Shown: positions 14,867 through 57,519 of the stretch, piece by piece | Layout: every line of letters begins with the position of its first letter | How positions within the stretch are numbered: the stretch's first letter is position 1 | Assembly: GCA_049999805.1 (NCBI GenBank) | Contig: JBNGIO010005227.1 | Span: 1 to 57,519 of the forward strand | Reading direction: 5' to 3' | DNA from: Folioceros fuciformis | Taxonomy: Eukaryota | DNA length: 57,519 nucleotides | Program-made: the position numbers and the translations under genes | The notes under the pieces: model-generated | Told to the model about the DNA's origin: nothing | What the model saw: the letters and a program-made list of their open reading frames with translations, nothing else | Databases searched by the model: none

Positions 14867-16198
14867 TTCTTGCTCCCTCCAATCTTGGGGGTTTGCATGA
14901 AATGCCTGGTGGACAAGAGTAGATTCAAAACTGAGAGAATCGTGCGGAAGACGCTGGGAAAGAACACTGAGACATTCACCACTTTCATCAAGTCTGAACA
15001 TGACGAGGACGCATGGTTGAATTCAAGGCCGGGGAATTGTGGTCTCAGTCTTGTTTGCATTCAAACTCTCTAGCTTCGAGCTAATAGGAGCCAGATTGTA
15101 TGTTGTTGTGATGGTACTTGGGCGGCTTGGCATAGTCTATTGTTTGACTCATCTTCCGACACCTATTTTGAACAATGGCCACAGTATGACAATCGGATCC
15201 CTTGTGGACCCAACACATTGTTGTGAGTGAAGGAATTCTATTAGGAGCTCCTGCTGGCCTCACTATAGGGAGTGAAGCCCTAGCCAACAAAGTCAAGTGG
15301 CCCCAACTTTGACTCTACTTAGATTGTTCCTCCAATCTTCAGTGTAAATGGCCCCAACTTTGGCCCTGCTCGGGTTGTTTCTCCAATCTTTGGAGTAGAT
15401 GAGACTTTCCATCTCTTTTGCATGAATTTGAAACAACCATTAGGTTTCAAAAGGAGTAGTGAGGTGGTTTCTATGAAACCCAAACCCATATATGTAACCT
15501 ACTGGGCGAAGCAACAAGGACACAAGTGGGGCAAGTTATCCTTGGAGCCCCATAGCTCCAAAAGGTTCATTTACATGTTTCATACCATTTTTGTCTGTGA
15601 CATGCAAACCTGTCCACACATGGCATAATCTTCCAGAAGAGGCCGCCTGATCCAATCCAATATGTGAATACCCAGATGAATGCAGGAGAAGCACATGTCG
15701 GAATCTTCCATGGGACGGAATATAGAAGAAGAAAGGTCAGTGGTGTTTGCTAACACCATAGAGAGAGAAGAAGAAGAAGAAGTGTAAATATCATCGGCGC
15801 AGCCCATATGCTGCATGCTGTTAAGAAGGGCGAGCGCCGAGGGACGAAGGGAAGCCATGAGGAGGGCAGGGCAGGGCAGGGCTACGGCAGCGGAGGCGGT
15901 TAACGGAAGAAACAGAAAACGGGCAGGCCATAATGCGGGGCGTAACAAGTCATTCATGAGGTGGCACGGAACGGGAAGGCAGAGAGGCGTGGTAACGGGG
16001 TCACGGGCTAGTACGGAGTCCGTTAAGCGGCGCGAAGCTGCACGTACAGCGATGTGATGAGAGATGGGGTTGGAGCTGGGCAGGTAGCGTGTCAGCTGAA
16101 GCTCCGGCCCCACACGGTCGTCCCAAACTCCCTCCCCCCGCCTTCCTTATCCCAGTCAGTATGAGGTATTCCTGTCCTTTTGAGTCCCTGTTATATTT

Positions 16199-16598
16199 NN
16201 NNNNNNNNNNNNNNNNNNNNNNNNNNNNNNNNNNNNNNNNNNNNNNNNNNNNNNNNNNNNNNNNNNNNNNNNNNNNNNNNNNNNNNNNNNNNNNNNNNNN
16301 NNNNNNNNNNNNNNNNNNNNNNNNNNNNNNNNNNNNNNNNNNNNNNNNNNNNNNNNNNNNNNNNNNNNNNNNNNNNNNNNNNNNNNNNNNNNNNNNNNNN
16401 NNNNNNNNNNNNNNNNNNNNNNNNNNNNNNNNNNNNNNNNNNNNNNNNNNNNNNNNNNNNNNNNNNNNNNNNNNNNNNNNNNNNNNNNNNNNNNNNNNNN
16501 NNNNNNNNNNNNNNNNNNNNNNNNNNNNNNNNNNNNNNNNNNNNNNNNNNNNNNNNNNNNNNNNNNNNNNNNNNNNNNNNNNNNNNNNNNNNNNNNNN
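16199..16598. other. assembly gap (400 N); other gaps at 1387-1396, 2353-2362 and 27388-27487
   Basis: N runs in the sequence. Confidence 1.
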
Positions 16599-18772
16599 GA
16601 TTGGAGCTTTGGGGAGCCTCACTACGCTGAATGTGGAGGGGAATGCCTTCAATGACTCCATTCCCGCTAACATCAGCGGCTTGCGCAGCCTGGTGGTGTT
16701 TGAGGCTTCCGGGAATGCCTTGTCCGGGATTCTACCCGAGGGGGTCGGGGATTTGACGGAGCTGCAAACCTTGCGCCTGGCGCACAATCTGCTGCTGGGG
16801 TCTCTGCCAGAGGGGCTGGCGGCCTTGGACAGGCTCACGGTTTTGGACTTGTCGGATAACTTCTTGGAGGGTGATTTGCCTGCCGGCTTCCTTGTGTCTG
16901 CTGATGTCACGGACAACTGCTTCGCCAATGGCACCCTGGGGCAGCAGCAGAAGCAGGTTTCCACCTGTGCGGATTTCTACTCGCAACAAGGGCTCCAGTT
17001 CGGGGGAGTTGCATCCAGTTCCAGCAGCCCCGCTTCCGGGCCGTCGGTCGACCAGACTCCCATTCTTACGCAGGGGGTCGCGGGGACCACGAGGGGGAGC
17101 CGTGCTCGCTTCAAGCTCATCGCTGCTGCTCTGCTGGGCGGGGTTGGGGGCCTCTTGCTCGTGCTTCTGGTTGGCTGGCTTGCTCTCTGTGTTCTCACCA
17201 GAGCTGGGAAGGGAGGAGGAGCGGGACGACCTCCCGCCGCTTTCGCCTTTGACTGTTCCAATGTTGCCCAAGCTGCTAGTGCGGCTCCGGCTGCCGCAGA
17301 CCTGGCTCACCGGCTGGGAGAGGCGTTTGCGTACGCCATTTTGGAGGAGGCGACGAGGAAGTTCCATGCTGGGAACCTGATTGTGGCGGGCCGGTCAGGA
17401 GAGCTTTACAGAGGATTGCTGGATGGACACTTAGACGTAGTGGTGAAGCGGATAGAGATGAACAGCGTTAGACGAGGCTCCTTCGCAGCAGAGCTTGATG
17501 TCATGTACAGGACGTCGCACGTCAGAATAGTTTCGTTGCTAGGGCATTGTTTGGATAAGGAGGATGTCAAGTTCTTGGTTTACAGGTACATGCCCAATGG
17601 AGACCTGGCGTCCTCCTTGCACAAGAAGAAGCTCGTCACTTTCAGCCCTGGGGGAGCAGAGGTAGCCAACTCTCTGGATTGGATAACTAGGCTCAAGATT
17701 GCTATCGGTGTGGCAGAGGGGCTCACCTACTTGCACCAGCAGTGCAATCCTCCTCTCGTGCACAGGTGATGTCCATCGAGTTGGTGTTGCTTCCAAAGCT
17801 CTGCTGTCCTGTTGGGATAGGCTAGGCTAGGCTAGGGTGTGTGAATGTGTGAAAACTTGCTCTTCTCACACTGTTGTCCTCCTCTTCTGCTCCTTCAGGG
17901 ATGTTACATCTAACAGCATTTTGCTAGATGACAAGTACGAGGTCAGGATTGGGAGTTTGAGTGAAGTTCGCGTGCAGGATGGAGACCCACACCATCCCAG
18001 TATGATCTCACGTCTTCTTGGACTATCATTGTAAGCTTCCTGTCCTGTCAAGATCCTTCATTGGCTAGCTTATTTAACTTCGTTTCTTCTGCATGGCTGT
18101 AGCTGACTTGTTCCCAACTTTGTCCTCGTGTGCAGTAATTCGGAGCAAGTAGAGCAAGGAGGATTGGTATCAGTACCATCCACCTCACAAGATGTCTACA
18201 ACTTCGGGAAGGTTCTGCTGGAGTTGGTATCTGGACAGATCGGCATCAGCAGCTCCACGGACTCCAGGGCACACGCATGGCTGGAATGGGCTCTCCCTCT
18301 GGTGGACATCCACGACAGGGAGCTGCTTCCCAGGCTCGTAGATCCCACCCTCACGGTGCACGAGGATCTGCTAGAGGAGGTGTGGGCCGTGGCCATCGTG
18401 GCCAAGCTCTGCCTCAACGTCAGGCCAAGCAAGCGACCCAGCATGCGGCACGTCCTCAGAGCCTTAGAGAACCCGCACAAGGTGATCAGGGAGGAAAACT
18501 TCAGGGAAACACTGTCCCTCAGAACATCCTCTCACAGCTCCTGGAACGAGGCCCTCTTCGGCAGCTGGAGGAGCAATTTTTCTTCCCAACGCTTCGGCCC
18601 ACTGACAGGGTCACTGCGGGAGGAGTACTCTTTCAAGAACGGAATTGCGGGATTCCAGCTGGCGACCAACCCGGTCCCGCACTCCAGGCGGGCCTCCAGT
18701 GAGATCGCCCCGGAGCCTCTCAAAGACCGTTTCTACGGATCTCGCCCGGGGCAATCCGAGTTTGTGCACTGA
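16599..18772 (+). CDS. LRR receptor-like kinase, subfamily XIV (At2g16250-like); 5' end lost in the 400-N gap at 16199-16598
   Basis: Plant LRRs (LxxLxLxxNxLxGxLP), a TM helix, and a kinase with VVVKRI, HR|DVTSNSILLDDKYEVRIGSLSEV and DVYNFGKVLLELVSG. Exons: ..17765, 17899-18030, 18136-18772. Confidence 0.9.
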
Positions 18773-21040: not shown

Positions 21041-21395
21041 TCGGCTTTACGATGTGCACATCGTGGGAAATAAATGTTTAAAAAATATTCAATTTTTGGA
21101 CCCAGAGGTGCGAAGAAGAAAGAATTCTCATAGGATTGCCATGAAATGTAGTTCTTTCGAAGAGGTAGAGGACAAGTACCAGAAGCAAACCAAAGACGCA
21201 CATATGACCGCAGAAACGACTCAAATTGAGTTGCTCAGGCAGTCTGGGGTTAACTTGCCCGGATGTGCGGGCAGGGTGCTCTAGGTCGAAACCGAAACCC
21301 TGGAGAGGCTGAACTCTTTGGGAGGCCGCATCGACGGGAAGGAGGAAGGACGGGGTCGGGGCTGACGGGCAGGGAGCTGCCGTCGGAGGGGCGGT

Positions 21396-23610
21396 ATGGC
21401 GTACGATAGCTATGGCGGAGGGCGGGGGGACTATGCAGGCGGCTACGATGACACATACGATGATCGCCCCGAGTTCCGGGATAGCTACCGGGACATTCAG
21501 CAGCAGGATCCTGGATTCGACAGCCCCAACTACGTGCCGGATGTGGTGAAAACCTTTGTGACCTATCTCTACAGGCACATCCGGGAGAAGAATACCTACG
21601 AGATTCATCAGATGTACGAGGGAAGCTTCCAGAAGCTGAGCGAGCGCATGTTCAAGCAGTCGTACTGGCCGTCCGTGGAGGCCATAGCTCCGCTGGTGGA
21701 CAATGACCATGTCTTTTGCCTGCTTTACCGAGAGATGTGGTTCCGCCACGTCTATGCCAGGCTCTCTCCCACCCTGGAGCAGAGATGCGAGTCCTGGGAT
21801 AATTACTGCGGTCTCTTCACTGTCGTGCTGCATGGAAATGTCAATATGCAGCTGCCGAACCAGTGGCTGTGGGATATGGTGGACGAGTTCATCTACCAGT
21901 TCCAGTCCTTTTGTCAGTACCGCGCCAAGCTTAAGAACAAGACCGAGCATGAGCTGCAGCTGTTGAGGCAGTACGAGGAGGTAACGTTTTTGTTGTCGGT
22001 GTTGTGACTTTTTTGTGTTTTTGCGGCATTAGGGTAGTGGTGAGCTCCAAGTCTCAGTCTATGCTTTGTTTCCTGTCCAGGTGTGGAACGTGTACGCAGT
22101 TTTGAACTACTTGCAGGCTTTGATTGACAAGTCCGCGATCCTTCAAGTTTTGGAGGATGAGAAGGACGGCCCTGGCCCTTTCACTATTAACGACGGTTAT
22201 GATTACGAGGGAGTTGGCTCCAATGTGCTGCGGGTTTTGGGGTATTTTAGTATCATTGGCCTTCTACGAGTTCACTGTCTGCTTGGGGATTACCAGAGTG
22301 GTCTTCGCAATCTGGCCCCAATAGATTTGGGTCAGTCTAGCGTGTGGAACAACAACATTGGGTCCCACATTACCACAATTTACTACTACGGGTTTGCCAA
22401 CATGATGCTAAGACGGTGGGGATAAAGTGTTGCGTGTTGCTTGCTGTCGCCCCTGCCTGTGCATGCTTGCTTACAGTCGCTCGATTTTTTGTCTGCAGCT
22501 ACACAGATGCAATCGGGGCTTTCAATCAGATCCTGCTGTACCTGATCAAGACGAAGCAGTTTCACCAACGCTTGTCACAGGCTGATCAGATTCATAAGAA
22601 AAACGAGCAGATGTATGCATTGCTCGCAATCTGCCTTTCCCTTTCGCCTCATGGAAAGCTTGTGGAAGAGAATGTGAACAACCAGCTGAGGGAGAAGTAC
22701 GCTGAGAAGATGTTACGGATGCAGAGAAGTGACGAGACTATTTATGATGAGCTCTTTTCGTATGCTTGTCCCAAGTTCATTACCCCTTCTCCACCCAACT
22801 ATGATGAGCCACTGGTCAATTACAACCAGGTCAGTGACACGTCTTTTAGGCCATTCCTGTTATCCCCGTCGTTCCTCGATTGCCTTTCTCCAATAGAATG
22901 TCTCTTGAGCTGTTTGGTGTGCAGGATGCGTACAGGTTGCAGTTAAAGCTTTTCCTGTCTGAAGTACGGCAGCAGCAACTGCTTCCAAGTATTCGTAACT
23001 ATCTCAAGCTCTACACCACCATCTCCATCGCCAAATTAGCATCTTTTATGGAAATAGACGAGCCCACTCTGAGGTTTGCAATTGCACCCTGCCCTGCATT
23101 ACATTCGACGTGTGGTGTGTGTGCTATGATGTTGACCATATTGGATTTGTACTCGGGGAAAGGCTTGCTAAAGGTAGTCGTTGAGTTGACAGGATGGCAT
23201 TGCTTACCTACAAACATAAAACACACGTTATCGACGAGGATGGCAGTATCTTATCCACTGCGGACGTGGACTTCTATATAGATGAGGTAGGGCTTCATGA
23301 ATTTTGAGTTTCAAAATTCGTTGTCCTTGTTCTTGCGAGTCCAGTTGCCCAGGCTGTAGGTCTTCCGTCTGTTTGCAGGACATGGTCCACATCGCCGATT
23401 TGAAAGTGACGAAGCGTTTTGGTGATATGTTCATTCGGCATATTGCAAAGGTATCCTCTTTCGTGGCTAATGCATGTTGGTACTATGCTTATGAATCCGT
23501 GTGGGGCTTGGTGGACCGTTTACAGACGAGTCCTTTGGCTATCTGTGCAGTGTGAGGAAATAGTAGAAGATTTGGGACGGATTCGGTCATCGGAGGGAGC
23601 AGCATTTTGA
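21396..23610 (+). CDS. eIF3L: eukaryotic translation initiation factor 3 subunit L
   Basis: [89 protein letters not shown]; multi-exon. Confidence 0.96.
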
Positions 23611-24758: not shown

Positions 24759-25005
24759 TTTCCTTGCCGCGCAGAAGGAATCAGGCTACTAATCCGTTAC
24801 CGCCGCACCCTCGATGCTCTAGTCTCCATTCCATCGATTTGGCGATCGTTCCTTCCTGGGATCACCCGCATCAACGCAATCACAACGCGCATAGGAAGGT
24901 TGTTATTTCGATCTAGGGCTTCGAGGCTCTTATTCAGAAGTGTTATTATATTAGCTCGAGGGAGGTCTAGGGGATTTGTGTAAGGCAAAATCTGTTTGTG
25001 CGAAG

Positions 25006-26765
25006 ATGAAGATGCAACCAGGGGAAGAGTATGCGGCCATGGCAGCGCAGGCCCGGAACTATGTGTGGATGGGAGCCATCCCGCTGTATCTGGAGTTACA
25101 CAAGGATGAGGTGGTCACTCTCCCGGCACCTCCTCCATTCATGGTACGTTTTCTAAGCAATGCTTTTGTTTGCCGCCGGTTTGTTGAATCTGCTGTGCTG
25201 ACATTGCTGCCCGGGGTGCAGGTTCTGGCTGCCAGGAACGGATACCTGCCGCTGCTCGCGGACATAATTCGCGAGCATTTTCAAGGCTCGTTGCCTCCAG
25301 GCGCGGAGACCCTGTGGTTTGATTACAACGGGTTGCCTTTGAAGTGGTCAGTAAAGTAAGCCATGGAGGAATTTTTAGCAGCAGGTCGTAGTAGCTTCAT
25401 GTGTCCTGACTTCTGCATTGATCTTGCAGGCATATTCCAACTGGCGTTCTCTTTGATCTGTTGTGTGTGGAGCCTCAGAGGCCGTGGAGGCTCACGGTAG
25501 TTTTGCTGTCATGAAGGTCTGCCGAATGGAGTTGTTTGGGTTTCATGTTGGAAGAGCTGAGTCTTTGTCCTGGTTAGGTGCACTTCAGAACCTATCCTTC
25601 AGATGTGCTCACGCCCTGTGATGGGGAAGAATCTGTCAAGTGGAATTTCATGAACGGGCTCAAAGAGGTGTGCAACCAGCTCTTGAAGTCTGAGCTTTTG
25701 ATTTTTCTGTAGCATTATTTGGTGACGAAGGCGGTCTCCATGCAGGCATCCTACATCATGTTTGGGAACACCAAAAGTGTCATGAACCTGCCTCAGGCAG
25801 AGCAGGTGGAGCTCTGGCGGTGTGTGGTAAGAGGTCGGTCGAAGATTTGTGTTTCATGTCATGCAAACTATGTCCCAATTTCATTTTCCATTACCCCTCA
25901 GCTATGGTCTGACGCATGGTGCAGATGGCAGGTGATGGAGAAGGTTATGATCGCATTTCTACTCGCCTGAGATCAATTGCACGTCCGTCAACCCGTGGAT
26001 CTGATGCGTCTGGTACACCAAAGGCGGGTAGGCGATTCGAGCATTCAGTTCTTTCTGTTTCCCATGATCTAGACCATTTAAGCTGACTCCAACAATGGCT
26101 GCTCTCAGTGTCGGCATCTGTGTCAAATCCTTCGAAGACTCCACTGCGACTGTACATCAGGGTCCTGCAAGAAGAGAGTGGAGACTACTTCGATGTGCCG
26201 CCTATTACAAGCTGGGACGATGTGGCATACGCGACAAAGCCCATCGAGATTCCGAAAACCGACGGTACCCTTCCACTCCCTGTCTCTGAAGTTACTCGAA
26301 GTGCATTACACAAATGTGAAGCAAAATATTTCTTGGTTTGCAGGACAGGTTTTCAGTCTCAGAGACGCGCTCATGAAAGTTGTACCACATCTTTTCTCCA
26401 AGCCAACCGCACAGGACGCAGAATCGAGCGACCTTTCAGACGCACAAGAATCCATGTGCAGACTGGACCTCGGCGAGGGCGTGACTGATGCAGCGGACGA
26501 ACCGGGGGAGGGCGAGTTTTCGCACACCCCTGGAGGCGGGCCAGAAGATTCCGCCCAGGAAGGTGAAGCAGCTGCCGTGGCAGACAGCTCACAGTGCGAC
26601 ACGGCTGCTGCATGCGCGGCAAGTCGCTTCAACGGCATAGTTAGAATACAAGGCATTGAACCTGACCTGGATCTACCTCTGGACTGGACACTTCGGAACC
26701 TGTCGGGGCCGGAACAATTTGTTCATGTGATCATCTTTACTTGGCTGAGCCGGCAGAACGTGTAG
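25006..26765 (+). CDS. ATG5: autophagy protein 5
   Basis: VWMGAIPL, RNGYLPLL, WFDYNGLPLKW|HIPTGVLFDLL, PWRLT|VHFR, FMNGLKE|ASYIMFG and C-terminal VRIQGIEPDLDLPLDW...FVHV. Confidence 0.95.
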
Positions 26766-27011: not shown

Positions 27012-28231
27012 ATGGGGAAGACGTCGCATCCCAGTTCCTGGCTTGGATGGTCCTGGGAATTCGAGGACATGGTGCAGCAGCAACCTCGGGGAAGTGAAGT
27101 GAAGTCGGAGGCCGCCCCGGATTCACGCCGGGCCAGATTCCGGATGCAAGCGGGGCCGTCCCGAGAGCAGATGCAGGCAGACCGCATCCTGAGCATCGTC
27201 CGCAGCATCCCCCCACCCGCCGCGCTGCATTTCCTGGCACCCGGCGGGGAATTTCGCTCAGGAAACGGGGCGGCATGGCCGTTCGCGGCTGTGCACGGCT
27301 TCCCGGCTCAGACCTGGCTGGAGATCGACTGGGAGGCGATACCAGCCAGCGCGGACCCGGCGCGCGGGGGCGGGTATAAGCCGGAGCNNNNNNNNNNNNN
27401 NNNNNNNNNNNNNNNNNNNNNNNNNNNNNNNNNNNNNNNNNNNNNNNNNNNNNNNNNNNNNNNNNNNNNNNNNNNNNNNNNNNNNNNAGGAGCCGGGTGC
27501 GGCACATGTGCCGAGGAGAGAGGAAACAGTGGCAGGTGAGCGGGATCGCGGGAATTCTCAAGTCCCTGGAGTTGGAGGAGGGATCCGTGGTGGTCGACTT
27601 CGGGTGTGGGTCCGGAGCGCTCACGCTTCCGCTGGCGGCCGTCTTCCCGGCCTTGGTTTTTGTCGGAGTGGATCTGAAACGGAAGAGCGTAGAGCTACTG
27701 CGGCAGCGGGCAGCGGCGGGAGGGTTGCCAAATGTGCGGGCGTGGTGCGGGAGTATCCAAAGTTTCAGGCAGCCGTTCCAGGCCTGCGTCGCTCTGCATG
27801 CTTGCGGATCCGCCACGGACATGGCCCTGGTGCAAGCGCTGGACAGGGCGTCCGCTTACGTCGTGTCGCCATGCTGCGTGGGGAAGTTGCAGCTAGAGCG
27901 TTGCGGAGGAGTGGCCCCGCTTGTGTACCCTAGGTCGCAGTGGCTTCGGTCTGCCATCTCCAGTGAGGACTTTTTGTTTCTCGCTCGGTCCGCGGACTGG
28001 AGCAGCTATGACCGGGACTGCACCGACAGCCAGTTGCATGCTCTATGCAAGGCCGTTGTGGAGCTGGATCGGAACCAGGCAGCCGTAGAGCGGGACTACG
28101 TAACTTCAATTTTCTCGCTGCCGAATCAGGCCGCCGGGGTCGTTGGCATCAGTCATATTCTGGTGGGAAGGCCGGATGATGAATTGCAGGGTCTCTCAGC
28201 TAGAACGCGGAGGAGAAAGCTTTCTCCCTGA
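27012..28231 (+). CDS. class I SAM-dependent methyltransferase (GSTCD C-terminal / Methyltransf_32-like); spans the 100-N gap at 27388-27487, start uncertain
   Basis: VVDFGCGSGALTLPLA, VGVD, VALHACGSATD and VVSPCCVGK motifs; upstream IDWEAIPASADP..G. Confidence 0.8.
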
Positions 28232-47935: not shown

Positions 47936-49742
47936 GCTTGTCTCAGTGTGCCTTCCGCTCGCGTGAACAAATGCTAGCCTAGGGCTCTGAGATGCACCCG
48001 TCTCGTCGACCAGCCCAAGGAGCAGAACAGCGCTCAAATTATGATACTATTTGTTATTACTTCGTACTTGACGCGTATATATGTTTCAAAATGAATTTGT
48101 TTAACATGTTATGCACAGGATGACGGAATATATCCAACGAGCATGACCATCCATACCTTTCAGAGATAACTGTTCCCGTCGCCAACCAAGCCCAGTCAGG
48201 TGTTTTCATCTTTGGGTCGGGACTCCCGACTCGGGAGTGCCGAGGCATTCACGCTAAAATGAAAGAAGTAGTGCTGCCTACCAGCAATCCTTCCTACGGG
48301 GGCTGATGGGGCGGGGCGCACTGTTGGTTGCTCTAGGAAAGGACTAAAGGAATGTTCAGCCAGCACAACAACGAATACATCTCCTTGGCGTGCAGTTTTG
48401 CTCGGATGGTTTTCAAGAGAGCACACCTGTGTAGTACAGAGGGCCTTCATATCTGCACCACCTGCCACTTTCTCGAAACCCACCACATGCAGCCCTGTTC
48501 GAGCTTCAGGCGGTGGTACACCAACCAGAGGGTGAGGTACAGTGGTGGGGGGTGGTATGGGCTTGCATGCTGCACTCTCTGTGGCATCATCCCACGTCCA
48601 ACACAGATGATTTTCGGAGGACAAGCCCGGTAAGGGTAAGGAAGGTACTAGCAGTCATATGGGAATCGTGCCCTCGTCTGGCTCAGGTTTGTGTGGCACT
48701 CTGGCTGGGCAGCACCTCACCGAGAAACACTCAGGCTAGGGCGTGCATCCAACATCCAACGGGCTGCCATTTCGTAACATGCTCTTCACCTCGGAGTCCA
48801 TACTTTGCCTCTGGGCATGGCAGCATCTCAGGAATCCAATCATGCAGGCTCTGTCACAGCCATAACCAGGGTTTCTGGCATGATCACCGCAAAATCTCCC
48901 CAGCTCGACGCACGAAGTCGATAGGGTCGGAGCAAGCCCTGGCTCTCAGAGCACTGCGCAGGAGAAGAAGTTCGCCGAGCGGCGCAGGGAGTGGCACCTC
49001 TGCTCTGATACACCCGATATCAACAGCGATCAGACAGGGATGCATCAGAGACGAGGAAGGCTAACCCGGCTATTCTGCATCTGCAAGACTACAGAGCAGA
49101 GCGTACGTTCCCTCATGGCGCAGTGCCCTGCTGAACGCTTCGGTATCTTCCTCTAGTCTGCACCGATACCTTCGTGGACTGCACGCAACAGGGCGGTCCA
49201 AGGGACCGGTGACGAGTCGAGTCGGCAAGGGATCGAAGTGAAAGCACCTGCCAGCGGCTGGCTGGGAACCAAAGTCAAGCCTGACACGTCTCAGAAAGCT
49301 TCGGCGGTCAGAGCGCTGCAAAATGTACTGTAGTGTACTGTACAAGGTTCACCCATTCCTCTGCTTGTAACACGGGTCATTGCAAGAAAGGTGAGGAGCA
49401 GGGCCCACTTTGCTGGCACCTGCAGAAGGACTTTGACTAGTTGGGCTCCCAGCCTGACGCCTATATGAACGTGGCCACACTCTCACCAAGTCATCATACA
49501 GGCCTTCGCACAATCCAGACTCAGCAAACGCTACACCCCGTCACGTCACCGAAATCGGAAGCGCAGATAGCGCTGTGGAGCTGCAACCATTTCACTCGCT
49601 CAGGAACCATCCAAGGCGTTGGGAATTCGTGAACTGGTGCAGAAGTCGACGAATCAAGATCCACGGTACGCACCTTGAGGAGCCGTTGTAGAGTCTGTGA
49701 CAGCAGCACCAAGTGATTCAAGGAATCTACAAGGCAAACGCA

Positions 49743-50165
49743 ATGGCGATGGCAGGTGGACGAAAACTTGTGTTGGCTGCTTGGGTGGTGTGCGCCGTGA
49801 TGGCCGTGGGTCTGATGCCCCACGTTGCCCAAGCCCAGGACACCACACTGGTGTCGGGGCTGTGCAATACGGAGAAAATTCGTGACGGCGCTTACCTCTG
49901 GGCCGGAGTGGATGCCGCGCTCTCGGACTTGGACAAGAACACAGCCTACAGCGGATACATCTACCGCACACAATACCAGCACGGCAGTGGTGGTGACACA
50001 GCCTACGCCCAAGGAATCTGCAACCAGAAACTTACCCAGTCGGAGTGCAGCGCCTGTCTCAAGGCTCTTCACTCGGATATCGGGAAAATTTGTGACAAGG
50101 CCGTTGGAGCCAGAGTGCAGTTTGCTGACTGCTTCATCCGCTACGAGACCTACAATTTCTACTAG
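49743..50165 (+). CDS. secreted single-domain Gnk2/DUF26 (ginkbilobin-2-like) protein
   Basis: Signal peptide, C-X8-C-X2-C (CNQKLTQSECSAC) and GARVQFADCFIRYETY; intronless. Confidence 0.92.
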   Translation: MAMAGGRKLVLAAWVVCAVMAVGLMPHVAQAQDTTLVSGLCNTEKIRDGAYLWAGVDAALSDLDKNTAYSGYIYRTQYQHGSGGDTAYAQGICNQKLTQSECSACLKALHSDIGKICDKAVGARVQFADCFIRYETYNFY

Positions 50166-50766: not shown

Positions 50767-51376
50767 CTCTGCGCAGAGATCATTACGACCTGTGCTTAAT
50801 TTCATTGGTGACTTACAGGTAATAACATACAAATTAAATCAGTCCAGCCCACGAAATCTGTGGTGGAAGGCACCCGTGGATGTCACGTCACACCGCCTGG
50901 TTCCGTTGCTCTGGTACATGTTCCACATCGTATTCGATATTTGCGTTGCCATGATCGTCGTCCGCTGGATATTAGCAAGGCTGGGCCACCCATGGCCGTC
51001 GGCGGATTAGAGAAACTGGCGACCTCGCCGAGTCGCCGGGCCCGGCCCGGCCCAGGCCGGCAATTTGTTTCACATGTTGATGCGCAAGCGTGATATGAAG
51101 TCTGCACTGCACATGTTGCAGCTGCACTTGAGCCTATTCACTCGGAGCTGGGACGCAATTCTCTCGAGTTCTACGATAGCAAGCTCGAGGATGTCGCCGG
51201 TGTTGAATGGGCTGATGAGGAGAACGCTGACACAGCCTTAGAGCAGGAGTGAGGAAGCTCTGCCTTGATTTTGATAGGGGCATGCAGGAGGCTGTCAGTG
51301 AGGACCTCCAAGTTCGTGGGCAGCTAGCTGCAGTCAGTTTTGCGTTGAGCGACAACAGCTGACAACACTAACAAGA

Positions 51377-51826
51377 TTGGATGGCCGGGAACCCAGCATT
51401 GCCAAGTTTCTCCTGGCTGTCATGATGCTGTGCGTGGTGGGTAGGATGGTGCCCACCGCTGCCGGTACCAGATCCGTCAGGGCACCCAAGCCGAAAGGGC
51501 CCAACACCACGCTCCTCAGTGCTGCCTGCAGCACCGGCGACACCATCACCGCAGGGAGCCCTCTCTTTGACAACATACATATGGTGTTCCAGGATCTGCA
51601 CCGGAACACTGCCACCAGCGGGTACTCCTACCGTGCCGAGAAACTGGGCGGAAACAGCACGGCGCACGGCCAGGCGATCTGCAACCAGAGACTCTCCCAG
51701 GACCTGTGCACTCAGTGCCTGGGAACTCTGACGAACACCATCTTGGCTGTTTGCGCTAACGCTGTCGGAGGCAGGGTGCAGCTGGTTGACTGCTTTCTGC
51801 GCTACGAAAACTTTGACTTCCCCTGA
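51377..51826 (+). CDS. second Gnk2/DUF26 protein (tandem paralog); start codon anomalous
   Basis: CNQRLSQDLCTQC (C-X8-C-X2-C) and GGRVQLVDCFLRYENFDF. The first in-frame ATG is at 51422; the ATG at 51381 is out of frame. Confidence 0.85.
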   Translation: MDGREPSIAKFLLAVMMLCVVGRMVPTAAGTRSVRAPKPKGPNTTLLSAACSTGDTITAGSPLFDNIHMVFQDLHRNTATSGYSYRAEKLGGNSTAHGQAICNQRLSQDLCTQCLGTLTNTILAVCANAVGGRVQLVDCFLRYENFDFP

Positions 51827-52362
51827 TAACCTGGCTGCAGAATTCCCCACACCCCTCCTCCTCGTACATGATCGTTAAGTAAATTTGGTGACCACTGCTA
51901 CGTAGTAACCGTAGACTGGCGGAAATTTGCTCATCGAGCTAGCCTAGGCGGAATATGGAAAGCTGATCATTTCACTAAAAGCCTTCTGTGACCTGCAATG
52001 AGCTTCGTAATTTGATGTCTAATTCGTACACCACGGCATGTTTAGGCGGCCCCGTAGTAGAACAGTCTGTGTCCTTGCCACACATGCGACAGTGGACAAC
52101 GCGTCCAGTTTTGGTCAGCAGACATGGTAGGGATTCTCATCTCACACCGTTCTCCAAACGGTTGGCACTAGTACTGTAAGCCCCAAAAGCAGGCCAGGCC
52201 AGGCCAGGCGGGCAACATGCACACGGGTTCTTTCCATTATCATGAGAGGTGCCAGGAACAGCGTTCGAAATCCATGTCCTGAGTTTGGAGAGGAATATTC
52301 ATGTACCACCACTGTCTCAGCAAGCACATCCACCCCTGGGCAAATCAGCACTAGCATGATCC

Positions 52363-55296
52363 TCACGGTCGACCCTGACAACTGCAACAACCTTCAGTGA
52401 ATCGATGCACACGGTACCCATCCCTCACAACAATGTCTCTCTGTTCAAGCCGTGACATGATCTCCGTGGAACTGTGGCAGTCACTGCACATGCGTAGATT
52501 CTTCGTTACCACAAGAGGTGTCCCACTCGGAGTGTTCAACAGACCAAACGCTAAGGCTAACTTCTCAGCATGCCCACAAAGCACATCTTCCTTTTCCTTC
52601 TCAGAGACTGGCTTCAACACCAATTTTGTCTGAGGTACGTGGCCTCCTTCCTGCTTCACACGGGCATTCGTGCTCACTACCTTAAGAGCAAGATCATCTC
52701 TTTTCTCCCCCACGGCAAATGTATGTACCTGCTTCTTCACCTCAATCGTGGCCACTGCAGGTTTCTTGTTAGCTCCTACTGCCCTTCTCTGTGTTTCAAT
52801 CCTATCTACATCGGTCCACATACCTGCATCTGCGTAGGCATTAGCCATGAGCACATAGGCGGACGCCATTTGAGGGTCCAGCCTAACAATGCTTTCAAAA
52901 CACCATACAGCCCTCTCTATATCCCCGTGATTTTTGCAGGCATTCAACAAAGTCATCAAGCCAACTGCGTTACTCTGGCCCTCACTTGATAATAGCATCT
53001 TCTCTGCCTCATCCAAAAGGCCAGCACGCCCCAGAAGATCGATCATACAGGTGTAATGCTCAATAGTAGGTTTGATGCCATGTTGTTCGGCCATGGAATG
53101 AAAGTGTTTGCGTCCCTCGTTGACCAGTCCCTCATGACTGCATGCTACTAGAAGGCAAGTAAAAGTAGCATCATCAGGCTGAACACCAGCAACTAACATC
53201 TTCTCGAAACAAGCTAGTGCCTTGTGACCTTCATCGCAGGCACCATAGCCAGCAATCAGGGCATTCCATGTCACCGCGTCCTTTGTGGCCATGCTGTCAA
53301 AAACTTGGCAAGCATTTTTCAGATCGCCACATTTGGCATACATGTCCACCAGGCAGTTGCCCACCACAACGTCCTCCAGCAGTCCTCTTTCAACAATCTG
53401 TGAGTGCAGTTGCATACCCTTCTGCAAGGCACCAGAGCTTGCACAGGCCTTTAGAAGGCAAGCAAAAGTAAAATGGTCAGCTAAAATCAGCCCCTCCTGC
53501 TCCATTTGTCCATATACGGCAAGCGCCTCATGTCCAAGCTCTTGCTGTGAATACCCCGCAATCAGGGCATTCCATGTCACCACATTCTTTGAGGTCATGC
53601 TATCAAGGACCTGGCGTGCATCTTTCATTTCACCACATTTGGCATACATGTCCACCAGGCAGGTGCCCACAACCACATCATCCAGCAGTCCTCTATCCAC
53701 AATCTGGGAGTGCAGGTGCCTCCCCTCCTGTAAGGCGCCAGTACTTGCACAGGCCTTCAGAAGGCATGTAAAAGTAACATGGTCAGCCAAAATGAGGCCA
53801 GCCTCCTCCATTTGTCCATACACAACAAGCGCCTCACGTCCAAGCCCTTGCTGGGAATACCCAGCCATCAGCACCGTCCATGTCACCACATCCTTTGTGG
53901 CCATGCCGTCAAAAACCTTGCGCGCATCTTCCAGTTCCCCACATTTGACATACATGTCCACCAGGCAGTTGCCCAACACTACGTTATCCAGCAGTCCTCT
54001 TTCGACAATCTGTGTGTGCAGTTGCATGCCCTTCTGCAAGGCGCCAGTGCTTGCACATGCCTTCAAAAGGCAAGCGAATGTAACATGGTCAGCCAAAACA
54101 AGGCCTGCCTCCTCCATTTGTCCATACACAAGAAGCGCCTCGTGACCAAGTCCTTGCTGTGCATACCCAGCGATCAAGGTGTTCCATGTCACAACATCCT
54201 TTGTGGCCATGCTGTCAAAGACCTGGCGTGCGTCTTCCAGCTTCCCACATTTCGCATACCCAGCAATCATGGCATTCCATGTCACCACATCCTTTCTGGT
54301 CATGCTGTCAAAAACCTGGCGTGCATCTTTCAGCTCGCCACATTTTGCATACATGTCCAACAGGCAGTTGCCAACAAACAAGTTAGTAGGAATTCCACTC
54401 TGCACCACATCACGGTGCACTTTCCTGCCAGAATCCAAGTCGGAAGCAAATGCACAAGCTTGAAGGACAGCTACAAAGACGTGAGCGTCCGCCTTCACTC
54501 CTGACCTACACATGTCATCATACAGTCGTATGGCGTCATTGGGTTTCCCATGCTTTGCATATGCGGAGATTATGGAAGACCACATGAAGGCATCCGGTTT
54601 CCCAACTCTGGTGAGCACATCCATGGCCTCCTCTAACCTCCCTCCGCATGCGTACATGCGCAATATATGGTTCCCCAAGTACGCATTGGACTCGTACCCA
54701 AGTTTGACACTGAGATCATGAACCCGTCGTCCCACAACCAAATCCTTCTTCGCTGTACAAAGTTTCAGCACAGTGCAAACCAGAGACGGAGAAACAGCAG
54801 AGTCCGTGAGAGCCAGAGACTCCAGGGCTTTAACGGCCTCGGACAGCTTCCCCTGCTGACATAACATGCTCACAGTGACGGCAGAAGCGACGCCCATTTC
54901 CACCTGCATATCCAAGAAAACGAGCTTCTCATCAACCCAACCAGGCTTGAACGCACTGTTCAACCACAGCACCTCCCCGGATCCCTTACGCCGGAAGTCA
55001 GGCGAACGGGAGCCCTTCTTGTCTCGTCGGTTATCCCACCACATGGTAGGGTCCAGAAAATATTGTTCCCACAATTGCTCCTGCTCCTGGCGACGACCAT
55101 CGTTGGAAATCTCTTCCCCACCCACAAATTTCCTTGGCTGTGGAAGTGCTGGGCTCCTTGCAGTGCTGCACCTGGAGGCTTTGCTAGCCGGGGCTCGAGT
55201 CCCTAAGACGCTTTTAGCAGGAGCTCCCGGTAGAATGCCTGTACACATTCCAATTCGTGGGGTCGACAACAAATCCGGTTGCCATACTGTGGCCAT
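52363..55296 (-). CDS. PLS-class PPR RNA-editing factor with N-terminal PDF (OSB-type) motif and C-terminal DYW:KP / GRP deaminase-like domain
   Basis: Intronless, ~977 aa from the ATG at 55296. Order: transit peptide; WWDNR..PDF motif; about 19 P/L/S repeats ending P2-L2-S2; E1/E2; KKPAVATIEV, HAEKLALAFGL, CSDCH; terminal CSCQGRP*. Confidence 0.95.
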   Translation of the reverse strand: MATVWQPDLLSTPRIGMCTGILPGAPAKSVLGTRAPASKASRCSTARSPALPQPRKFVGGEEISNDGRRQEQEQLWEQYFLDPTMWWDNRRDKKGSRSPDFRRKGSGEVLWLNSAFKPGWVDEKLVFLDMQVEMGVASAVTVSMLCQQGKLSEAVKALESLALTDSAVSPSLVCTVLKLCTAKKDLVVGRRVHDLSVKLGYESNAYLGNHILRMYACGGRLEEAMDVLTRVGKPDAFMWSSIISAYAKHGKPNDAIRLYDDMCRSGVKADAHVFVAVLQACAFASDLDSGRKVHRDVVQSGIPTNLFVGNCLLDMYAKCGELKDARQVFDSMTRKDVVTWNAMIAGYAKCGKLEDARQVFDSMATKDVVTWNTLIAGYAQQGLGHEALLVYGQMEEAGLVLADHVTFACLLKACASTGALQKGMQLHTQIVERGLLDNVVLGNCLVDMYVKCGELEDARKVFDGMATKDVVTWTVLMAGYSQQGLGREALVVYGQMEEAGLILADHVTFTCLLKACASTGALQEGRHLHSQIVDRGLLDDVVVGTCLVDMYAKCGEMKDARQVLDSMTSKNVVTWNALIAGYSQQELGHEALAVYGQMEQEGLILADHFTFACLLKACASSGALQKGMQLHSQIVERGLLEDVVVGNCLVDMYAKCGDLKNACQVFDSMATKDAVTWNALIAGYGACDEGHKALACFEKMLVAGVQPDDATFTCLLVACSHEGLVNEGRKHFHSMAEQHGIKPTIEHYTCMIDLLGRAGLLDEAEKMLLSSEGQSNAVGLMTLLNACKNHGDIERAVWCFESIVRLDPQMASAYVLMANAYADAGMWTDVDRIETQRRAVGANKKPAVATIEVKKQVHTFAVGEKRDDLALKVVSTNARVKQEGGHVPQTKLVLKPVSEKEKEDVLCGHAEKLALAFGLLNTPSGTPLVVTKNLRMCSDCHSSTEIMSRLEQRDIVVRDGYRVHRFTEGCCSCQGRP

Positions 55297-56109
55297 CGCT
55301 GCTGTCGGAGGAGCATGGAGAGCACAGGACAGGACAGGACACGCCAATCGTCCTCTCCTCGCGCACCGAATTCACTGCACCCAGGCCAGGGTTGATGTAC
55401 AGGACTGAGTGACCCGGATGGTGAATGGGCGTGGAGTGCCTTCACATCTGCTGAACACCATAGCGAACAGTTAACCGCTTCAAAAGACATTCGAGCTTCA
55501 TTTTGTGTTCATCTTTGGGATATTTTGTGTTTGGGTATATTTTTAGTACCCATGGGCATATGCTACTTGGCAAGGACGGAACAAAATGCACACTTCATTC
55601 CAAGAAAGGAAGGGATGCTTTTAAATAATTGAATGTATAAAAATTATATAATGAGATGAAAGAAACTTAAGACAAGGGATGATTAACATAGTAACCTTGA
55701 TTAATTTTGCTTCATTTGAAGAAAGAAAAAATATGGATGAAAAGAAATATTACGGGTACAAGAAGAGTCATTATTATGAACTAAAAGTGGGTTTATACGA
55801 GTTTATACGAGCTCTTACAGTGCTCTTGGAACAAAGAAACCACAAAGTGAACAACACACCACATCTAAGTTCTTTCTAACAGTCATTGGCGCTAGGATTT
55901 GAAATCCTACTTCTCTAGGATGATTTGCTAAGTGATGAATAACAACTAAAAAATCCTAGAGTCAATCCAACAAGATGAACTCCCAACAATGGAGGGGAGC
56001 TTTTCAATCCAATAAGATGGCCATATGTGGATGAGGAAGCTCCACAAAGTTTGGTAGAACTGGAACGTGAAAAGGAGTTGCACCCGAGAAGAAGTTGCTT
56101 TTGGGTTGA

Positions 56110-57519
56110 TCACTTTTCATAGGATTCGTCCAAGGACGAAATATAACTACCAAAACTATCGTGTTCTGAAGCTGACGAGTCGTAAGAATTAAGGTCCGCA
56201 GAGTCTGTCAACGACGAATGAGCTGTAGCAGTGAATCCTGCAACAGCTCCGTTGGCATCCGGGACTCTGTCATTGCAAGCGGCAGCATCAGAGCCTGTGG
56301 GCGCCGCATTCCCAGCTGTAGCGCCAAGCTCCTCGTTTTCTAGATCCTCTTCCTCGTCTGTTTCGGAGTCGTTCTCGGCCCTTTCCCCGTGCCCTACAAC
56401 ATCCACATCCAGACAGTCAGCAGGCTAAAGTAGGCGGAGGTATGCACGAGGGCTTGAAAACATGGTAACCACAGTGCATGGTCCGTATGCCCAGGTCGGG
56501 ATGGATTTTGACCCGTACCCGTGGGTGACGCATTTCTGTTGCAATCTGGGAGCCTGTGATTGTGAGTTACAACAGCAGAGCCTGTGGGTGCAGGATTTTC
56601 AGTCGTAGCACCGAGGTTCCTGGTTCCGCGTTCCCCTTCCGCTTCATCGTCCGTTAGCCCTTCGATGTCGATGTCAGAGTCGGAAGAACTAAAGTAGTCC
56701 GCGAGCTGAGAGGTTTGAAAAGGAAAAGGTATTCTGGACATCGACGACGAGATGGGATTCACAGATTCCATGACGGTATCAGAGGCGATGGTGGCGGATT
56801 CCCGTGGGATTGAAGTCGCCCTAGAGAGTTTCGGCGACTGGACGCGATTTTGGTTCCTACTCGTGGGTCCTCCGACGGTGCCGTTGGAATCTGGGTCTCT
56901 ATGGTGATCATCCTTGTGAGTGGCATCTATATCAGAGCCTGTGGACCTCGGATTTTGAATCGTGCCAGCAAGATCTCTAGTCCCGCGACCCTTGACCTCT
57001 TCGGTATCTGCGTCTTCGAGATCGAGCGCTTCCATATGGATAATATCGGACTCAGTAAAGACCTGAGAGCCTGTTGGCGCCAGATTTTCAATCGCATCAC
57101 CGACTTCTCTGACTCCGGCTCCATCTTCCTCCTCGTCATCTGTACTACGGTCGATATCGATTATCCAGTCGGGAGGGCTAGAGTTGCAGGCTGTCGGACA
57201 ACAACCCGACCAGGCTGGTCGGGTTGTCAACCCGACCAGTCCCGACAACGAGATGGGATTTTGAGCCGTACTCGCGGGTCCTCCAACAGTTTGGTTGCAA
57301 TCTTGGATCCTGCCATTGCAAGTGACAAGTCCATGAGAACCTGTGGGCGCCGGATTAGCAATGGTACCATCGACTTCTGTGATTCCGCGTCCCTCTTCCC
57401 GTACATGTGCCTCTGCCTCTGCCTCTGCCTCTGCCTCTGCCTCTGCCTCTGCCTCTGCCTCTGCCTCTGCCTCTGCCTCTGCCTCTGCCTCTGCCTCTGC
57501 CTCTGCCTCTGCCTCTGCC
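56110..57519 (-). CDS. 3' part of an acidic, low-complexity repeat protein (5' end beyond the window)
   Basis: The frame is open from the window end through (EA)n and four units of the type RGxxxLG/DGxxxNPAPTGS (three of them followed by R.PD.N). A fifth unit lies in a different frame at 56110-56393, after an AG acceptor at 56394. Confidence 0.55.
57408..57519. repeat. (CTCTGC)n hexanucleotide microsatellite, encoding (EA)n on the minus strand
   Basis: Perfect run of about 18 units up to the window end. Confidence 0.95.

Follow-up and report, generated by a model that had tools for sequence, protein, structure and literature searches.

A GRP-type DYW:KP pentatricopeptide repeat gene with an N-terminal PDF motif in Folioceros fuciformis, a candidate factor for U-to-C RNA editing

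Introduction

Which natural proteins convert uridine to cytidine in organellar RNA, and can a gene for such an enzyme be recognized from its reading frame? This question is raised by a pentatricopeptide repeat (PPR) gene on contig JBNGIO010005227.1 of Folioceros fuciformis (assembly GCA_049999805.1), of which a stretch of 57,519 nucleotides, here called the window, was analyzed. A first-pass annotation, made from the letters of the window alone, had described the 3' end of the gene as a DYW domain of the KP class (DYW:KP) that ends in Gly-Arg-Pro (GRP) and had proposed that the protein is a native hornwort factor for U-to-C editing. The gene is nuclear, intact, and free of introns; it belongs to the PLS class and encodes a presequence, a PDF motif, 19 PPR motifs, E1 and E2 motifs, and a DYW:KP domain.

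The GRP subgroup was reportedly described by Gerke et al. in 2020. Further background on the class is drawn from PMC9478123, PMC11845758, PMC11332814, and PMC13386178. GRP and DRH domains are given there as two hornwort variants of DYW:KP (PMC9478123, citing Gerke et al. 2020). The definition of the KP domain includes a length of 132 to 133 residues, without the xHP of the 136-residue PG domain (PMC9478123, PMC11845758), and the signature HxE(x)nCxxC, in which Ala (or Cys) replaces the Ser after His. The first-pass annotation had held that KP domains are restricted to lineages with U-to-C organellar editing (hornworts, ferns, and some lycophytes), and a survey of 364 genomes, 22 hornworts among them, confirms such a restriction (PMC13386178). 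Its statement that engineered versions catalyze U-to-C likewise agrees with the designer proteins KP2 and KP3, which were built on GRP sequences and edited U-to-C at about 26% and about 22%, respectively, in Escherichia coli, with no C-to-U detected (PMC9478123, Ichinose et al. 2022). HAA and AxxA mutants of the designers were inactive (PMC9478123). The K88A substitution abolished U-to-C editing in KP2, KP3, and KP6, and replacement of Lys88 produced C-to-U editors (PMC11845758); an attack of the lysine on uridine C4, giving a Schiff base, has been proposed (PMC11332814). The activity of natural KP proteins was described as unknown in 2025 (PMC11845758); the first-pass annotation had called native factor-site pairs and the amination chemistry poorly known.

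Gene structure

The gene occupies 52363..55296 on the minus strand as a complete coding sequence of 977 codons plus a TGA stop (52363-52365), with Pfam matches to PPR, E_motif, and DYW_deaminase. The open frame extends upstream to a TTG at 55347 and comprises 994 codons, 977 of them from the first ATG (55296); residues are numbered here from the TTG, so that a number based on the ATG is lower by 17. Neither an internal stop nor a frameshift interrupts the frame, and PPR and E motifs were found along its whole length. The neighboring PAF67/eIF3L-like (21366-23278) and ATG5 (24955-26762) genes are split into exons, and the window is therefore plant nuclear DNA.

All parts of the protein are encoded on the minus strand. 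A presequence read from the translation (residues 18 to 87; 55087..55296) is followed by the PDF motif (residues 88 to 148; 54904..55086), identified by alignment and by profile comparison with OSB-like open reading frames (ORFs). Next come the PLS array of 19 PPR motifs (residues 154 to 793; 52969..54888; manual parse and Pfam PPR and PPR_2) and the E1 and E2 motifs (residues 794 to 861; 52765..52968; manual parse and Pfam E_motif at 807-869, E 4.4e-14). The DYW:KP domain, assigned to the GRP subgroup, makes up the last 133 residues (862 to 994; 52366..52764). Ser, Thr, Ala, Arg, and Pro abound in the presequence, which has 1 acidic residue among its first 60; this composition suggests that it is likely an organelle transit peptide.

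DYW domain and class assignment

The motifs that the first-pass annotation had named (KPAVA, HAEKLA, CxxCH, and the GRP end) were all found in one minus-strand frame. KPAVA stands in the place of the PG box at 52750-52764 (domain positions 1 to 5, with K1, P2, A3, and A5 present), HAEKLA lies at 52555-52572, the CxxCH motif, CSDCH, contributes two further zinc ligands at 52474..52488, and the terminal Gly-Arg-Pro replaces Asp-Tyr-Trp at 52366..52374. The span given for the domain, 52363..52775, was right in the motifs that it encloses and wrong at both boundaries: it starts at the last base of the stop codon and ends 11 bases into E2, the domain itself being 52366-52764. Within HAEKLA, the HAE triplet (domain positions 65 to 67; 52564..52572) supplies the zinc-binding His and the catalytic Glu, with the KP-type Ala between them. 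Lys88 of the domain lies in the sequence TKNLR (52501..52503). The catalytic set is complete (His65-Ala66-Glu67, Lys88, Met92, Cys93, Cys96, His97, and the C-terminal His...Cys-x-Cys), and the His, the Glu, Lys88, both Cys residues, and the His of CxxCH are invariant in an alignment of 43 DYW proteins. At 133 residues, the domain lacks xHP, while PG rows mostly have 136 residues.

The DYW domain match is far above chance level. Pfam DYW_deaminase matched residues 902-992 (E 8.8e-34; 115.6 bits against a 24-bit cut-off), and the last 165 residues matched the solved DYW structures 9kfx (E 1.9e-44), 7w86 (E 4.2e-30), and 7o4e (E 3.1e-28). An AlphaFold2 model of these 165 residues had a mean predicted local distance difference test (pLDDT) score of 93.7. 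Searched with this model, Foldseek placed 9kfx first (E 2.2e-18; template modeling [TM] score 0.88), followed by the DYW domains of OTP86 and DYW1; chains from four DYW structure entries filled its top six rows, and bacterial cytidine deaminases ranked far lower. As modeled, the domain has the DYW deaminase fold, that is, a cytidine-deaminase fold with a gating insertion and a C-terminal zinc motif. Besides this fold (Foldseek E 2.2e-18 to 2.0e-9), it shares with DYW:PG domains (OTP86, 7o4e/7o4f; DYW1, 7w86; synthetic PPR-DYW, 9kfx) the HxE...CxxCH zinc site, a lysine equivalent to OTP86 K915, and the C-terminal H...CxC. It differs from them in having KPA for PG, HAE for HSE, three fewer residues, RVHRF for RFHHF, and GRP for DYW, and the reaction ascribed to the KP class is the reverse of the DYW:PG reaction.

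For the class assignment, 199 proteins were gathered from a word-indexed search with the domain region (51 and the query) and from the best 150 of 2476 HMMER matches, the HMMER scan covering 1.84 billion representatives. After removal of 26 proteins, for which the best match either was incomplete or had no CxxCH, 173 DYW domains remained for the tree. This tree came from a quick IQ-TREE search of 136 columns with no root inferred; many of its deeper forks are open, and only its starred branches were used. Five GRP-ended rows, including the query, formed one branch (Shimodaira-Hasegawa-like approximate likelihood ratio test [SH-aLRT], 97). This branch is nested in a set of 19 rows (SH-aLRT 95) that also holds DRH-ended proteins, and the 19 rows are nested in turn in a set of 30 (SH-aLRT 99), of which 29 have HAE and 1 has HVE. 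Rows combining a PG box, HSE, and a DYW end were absent from the 5-, 19-, and 30-row sets of this tree. The phylogeny that the first-pass annotation had proposed as a check therefore gave a result other than the one named as speaking against it, clustering with DYW:PG: the query lay outside the PG grouping and among GRP/DRH-type domains.

Comparison of alignment columns gave the same grouping. The query has K1, A3, A5, D24, A66, and V119 in common with the KP clade, where 93 PG rows have E, G, S, E, S, and F, respectively. K1, A3, and A5 are found in most of the 30 rows of that clade, and position 66 is Ala in 29 of them, as against Ser in all 93 PG rows. G131 and P133 occur in GRP rows only (5/5), and Asp131 occurs in 23 of the 25 other KP rows. 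With hornwort GRP proteins and with KP2 and KP3, the query shares the KPAxA box, HAE, Lys88, Met92, the GRP end, and the length of 133 residues without xHP. As in GRP proteins, it has a Glu (in CHSSTE) at the position held in PG domains by a Lys, the pairing partner of the Asp of DYW (PMC9478123). It differs from KP2 and KP3 in being a natural protein with its own 19-motif array and an N-terminal PDF motif. The DRH subgroup is similar to the query in its KPAKA-type box, HAE, Lys88, and length (132 to 133 residues), with 61 to 66% identity in the domain region and a shared branch of 16 to 19 rows, and is distinguished by its D-R-H end, a Cys at position 6, and Asp131 where GRP rows have Gly. 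Membership in the KP class, as first proposed, was borne out by the KP box, HAE, the length without xHP, Lys88, Met92, the GRP end, and the tree placement, and assignment to the GRP subgroup of DYW:KP is supported by every sequence test that was run. The gene is a further member of an already described and numerous subgroup and is ordinary within its class.

PPR array and predicted target

Parsed manually, the array has the order P1?-L1-S1-P1-L1-S1-SS-(P1-L1-S1)x3-P2-L2-S2, with motif lengths of 31, 35, and 36, and was matched by Pfam PPR (E 1.6e-101) and PPR_2 (E 3e-98). In this parse, the protein has the make-up expected of a PLS-class editing factor, with P/L/S triplets, a terminal P2-L2-S2, and E1 and E2 motifs. 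The specificity code was read from position 5 and the last position of each motif. In the PPR code, ND specifies U, TD and SD specify G, and TN specifies A. With S2 opposite position -4 and E1 at -3 (PMC9478123), the sequence predicted upstream of the edited U is 5'-nAUGnUUUnUGGAUnUUnAnnn-3'. The best code agreement was with the closest relative, P0002, a GRP-ended protein that is 56% identical to the query over 928 residues and agrees in 6 of 17 comparable motifs.

Three near-identical P1-L1-S1 triplets (residues 385 to 690; 53245..54259, minus strand) form a tandem repeat of a 306-bp unit (3.3 copies, 83% matches). The triplets differ among themselves with a synonymous divergence (dS) of 0.51 to 0.55 and a ratio of nonsynonymous to synonymous divergence (dN/dS) of 0.17 to 0.24; with such a ratio at a dS of about 0.5, the frame appears to have been under purifying selection since the duplication. 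Variation was found at 5 of 6 code positions versus 34 of 102 positions overall, a pattern that purifying selection on the scaffold, together with change at specificity residues, would give. Judged by eye from the alignment, the corresponding triplets of P0002 seem to have diverged further from one another. Plus-strand ORFs lying over the PPR gene (e.g., 53285-54145) were rejected as antisense artifacts of the repeat.

A second, shorter tandem duplication (93 bp; 54161-54352, minus strand, 86%) created the 31-residue SS motif (residues 354 to 384; 54196..54288), the first half of which is P1-like and the second half S1-like. This motif is missing from P0002, where the alignment has a gap of 31 residues.

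Sequencing runs from several organisms were compared with the gene. Mismatch-free pieces over the gene came only from organism A (runs X1 and X2). Coverage of 52353-55221 by contigs from two other organisms (runs X5 and X10) reached only 90 to 95% identity and was broken into thousands of short pieces, among which false joints were frequent; very large families of similar PPR genes are therefore present in related species.

PDF motif

Ahead of the array, residues 88-148 carry the motif LWxxYFxxPxxWWDNRxDKK..PDFRRK..LW...KPxWV. Among 316 collected proteins, 11 have it: the query, P0002 (GRP end), and nine PPR proteins of the lycophyte Diphasiastrum complanatum. The carriers other than the query are P0002, P0201, P0202, P0204, P0208, P0210, P0216, P0219, P0229, and P0248, along with loci L001-L058. 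In OSB proteins, an OB fold is combined with a 50-residue PDF motif named for Pro-Asp-Phe (PMC6963530, PMC4166229), and the PDF motif of OSB1 is sufficient for single-stranded DNA binding (PMC6963530).

Two loci, L002 and L013, encode a Pfam SSB domain (E 7.7e-17 and 2.9e-18, respectively) followed by the motif, and thus have the OSB architecture. Over 60 residues, the query motif and that of L002, which lies C-terminal to the SSB/OB fold, are 48% identical (E 5e-20), and comparison of the motif profile with L013 by hhalign gave a probability of 98.6%. Pfam found no SSB domain in the query protein, and residues 18-160 gave no match even with the threshold at E 10. The protein thus has the PDF motif but no OB fold. 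It is like OSB proteins in having a PDF motif of about 50 residues with the Pro-Asp-Phe signature and unlike them in the placement of the motif, which stands N-terminally, ahead of a PPR array, and not C-terminal to an OB fold.

An AlphaFold2 model of residues 80-216 (mean pLDDT 91.8) has a helix, three short strands, and a long helix ahead of the first PPR motif. In a fold search with the N-terminal model, only the PPR part aligned (residues 70-137). A profile search of the PDB with the motif gave 0 matches, a word-indexed search for longer proteins with the motif gave no candidate, an Atlas search gave no usable match, and a full-text literature search for WWDNR returned nothing related.

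Metagenome contigs were also scanned with the motif alignment. Of the 132 stretches confirmed in this way, 80 were retained, and many of the loci repeat one sequence across samples. The context was plant-type in 54 of the 80 kept stretches, and of the 38 plant-type loci with at least 1,500 bases downstream, 34 have the PLS signature DMYxKCG on the same strand. The four without DMYxKCG are L024, L027, L035, and L038; L024, L027, and L038 match the OB-fold segment of L002 elsewhere in the locus. In many genomic loci with the motif, an intron follows WWDNRxEK; the window gene has no intron there.

Judged from these alignments, the PDF-PPR fusion is not a one-off, as it recurs in a second GRP-type protein, in nine Diphasiastrum complanatum proteins, and in plant-type metagenome loci. 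No description of a PDF-PPR fusion was found within the literature searched, and we would suggest only tentatively that the combination of a PDF motif, a PLS array, and a DYW:KP domain is an architecture not described there.

Proposed function and alternative readings

If expressed, the protein would be imported into a plastid or mitochondrion, where its PPR array would recognize about 20 nt preceding a single site or a small number of sites, each motif reading one base and S2 lying opposite -4, and its deaminase-like domain would convert the uridine at position 0 to cytidine. The chemistry would involve the zinc site (His65, Cys93, and Cys96), Glu67, and Lys88, with Lys88 attacking uracil C4 to form a Schiff-base intermediate. 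By analogy with the engineered KP proteins, U-to-C editing is a well-founded reading of this gene, to which we give a probability of roughly 0.7. Only consensus designs have been assayed, and the presumed function thus rests on consensus proteins, not natural ones.

Several points weigh against U-to-C editing by this protein. In bacteria, the designer reaction stalls as a protein-RNA crosslink, and purified KP6 showed no U-to-C in vitro (PMC11332814); KP6 performs C-to-U editing too, and by February 2025 not one natural DYW:KP protein had been assayed (PMC11845758). The literature search found no later report on a native DYW:KP factor. Three columns of the query domain are unusual: T6, where its GRP-subgroup relatives have G; A26, where they have S, as do 25 of 25 other KP rows; and Y117, where they have H, as do 23 of 25. 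In the array, code positions VN, AN, AD, TT, MM, and VK, from L, E1, and E2 motifs, are not confidently readable and were left open in the predicted target. The same PPR code was found in none of the five closest full-length relatives (P0002, P0054, P0003, P0005, and P0008), which are, as read from their codes, paralogues with other targets; since the retrieved relatives do not share the code, conservation of the target cannot be argued. As to expression, run X1, presumed to be RNA, covers intergenic stretches as well, without mismatch and at a depth similar to that of the DNA run X2.

Some of these points concern direction. The zinc ligands and catalytic Glu are identical to those of C-to-U DYW domains, and substitutions at Lys88 turn KP2, KP3, and KP6 into C-to-U editors (PMC11845758), so single residues set the direction of editing. 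Together with the C-to-U activity of KP6 and the unusual T6, A26, and Y117, this would be compatible with a site-specific factor that acts C-to-U, or in both directions, despite its KP-type domain. Such a factor is nonetheless improbable here: the query has both Lys88 and Ala66, its domain clusters with GRP and DRH rows and not with PG, and the two GRP-based designers edited U-to-C with no detectable C-to-U in E. coli (PMC9478123).

Other points concern whether the gene acts at all. It might be a silent or redundant paralogue of a very large family, intact but unexpressed or without a site of its own. The presumed-RNA run X1, with its intergenic cover at DNA-like depth, yielded no RNA evidence for the gene; no orthologue with the same code was found among the five closest full-length relatives, the thousands of contig pieces of related organisms at 90 to 95% identity show a very large paralogous family, and the array has recent internal duplications. 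A disused copy is hard to reconcile with a 977-codon frame free of stops and frameshifts, the retention of all catalytic residues, and the low dN/dS (0.17 to 0.24) of the internal triplets at a dS of about 0.5, and we consider it unlikely. PPR proteins generally have many non-editing roles, and the PDF motif, sufficient in OSB1 for binding single-stranded DNA, would fit a noncatalytic binder of organellar RNA or single-stranded DNA that might stabilize RNA or help another editing enzyme, but a truncated E or E+ protein would suffice as a helper, and this very improbable reading leaves aside the full catalytic signature, including Lys88, and the DYW fold modeled at high confidence. U-to-C editing of an organellar transcript is the reading preferred here over all three.

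Remainder of the window

Just downstream of the PPR gene, at 49701-50162 and 51302-51823 on the plus strand, are two tandem genes for Stress-antifung (DUF26/Gnk2-like) cysteine-rich domains (Pfam E 4.3e-12 and 1.6e-11). Other multi-exon genes, all on the plus strand, are the PAF67/eIF3L-like gene in four ORF pieces, the ATG5 gene with UblA and UblB domains, and a leucine-rich repeat (LRR) receptor-like kinase gene interrupted by a run of N (16600-17769). Four N runs, at 1387-1396 (10), 2353-2362 (10), 16199-16598 (400), and 27388-27487 (100), are assembly gaps or masked stretches. At 15175-15255 (plus strand), a stretch of 81 bases resembles the opening codons of the PPR gene (MATV...), with 76.5% identity. 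The stretch contains an in-frame stop and is not followed by PPR sequence, and the similarity is too small to interpret. A perfect hexanucleotide repeat of TGCCTC (57408-57519; 18.7 copies) is cut off by the window end and lies inside an open minus-strand frame (56397-57518) that has no Pfam match.

Implications

U-to-C is the only pyrimidine transition without a directly tested natural enzyme, and what is known of it comes from consensus designs that are weak and become crosslinked to RNA in bacteria. An intact natural gene of the GRP type whose PPR code can be read offers a usable candidate for a first native factor-site pair. The gene is one of many such and by itself leaves the picture unchanged. 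Less expected is the PDF motif, which suggests an accessory for nucleic acid binding that is absent from designer editors; of all the features of the gene, the PDF-PPR fusion most deserves a further look. The motif, if it clamps RNA on the 5' side of the PPR footprint or tethers editing factors to the nucleoid, would represent a new accessory module in the editing machinery of non-seed plants, and in that case a PDF motif could help the poorly performing U-to-C designer proteins.

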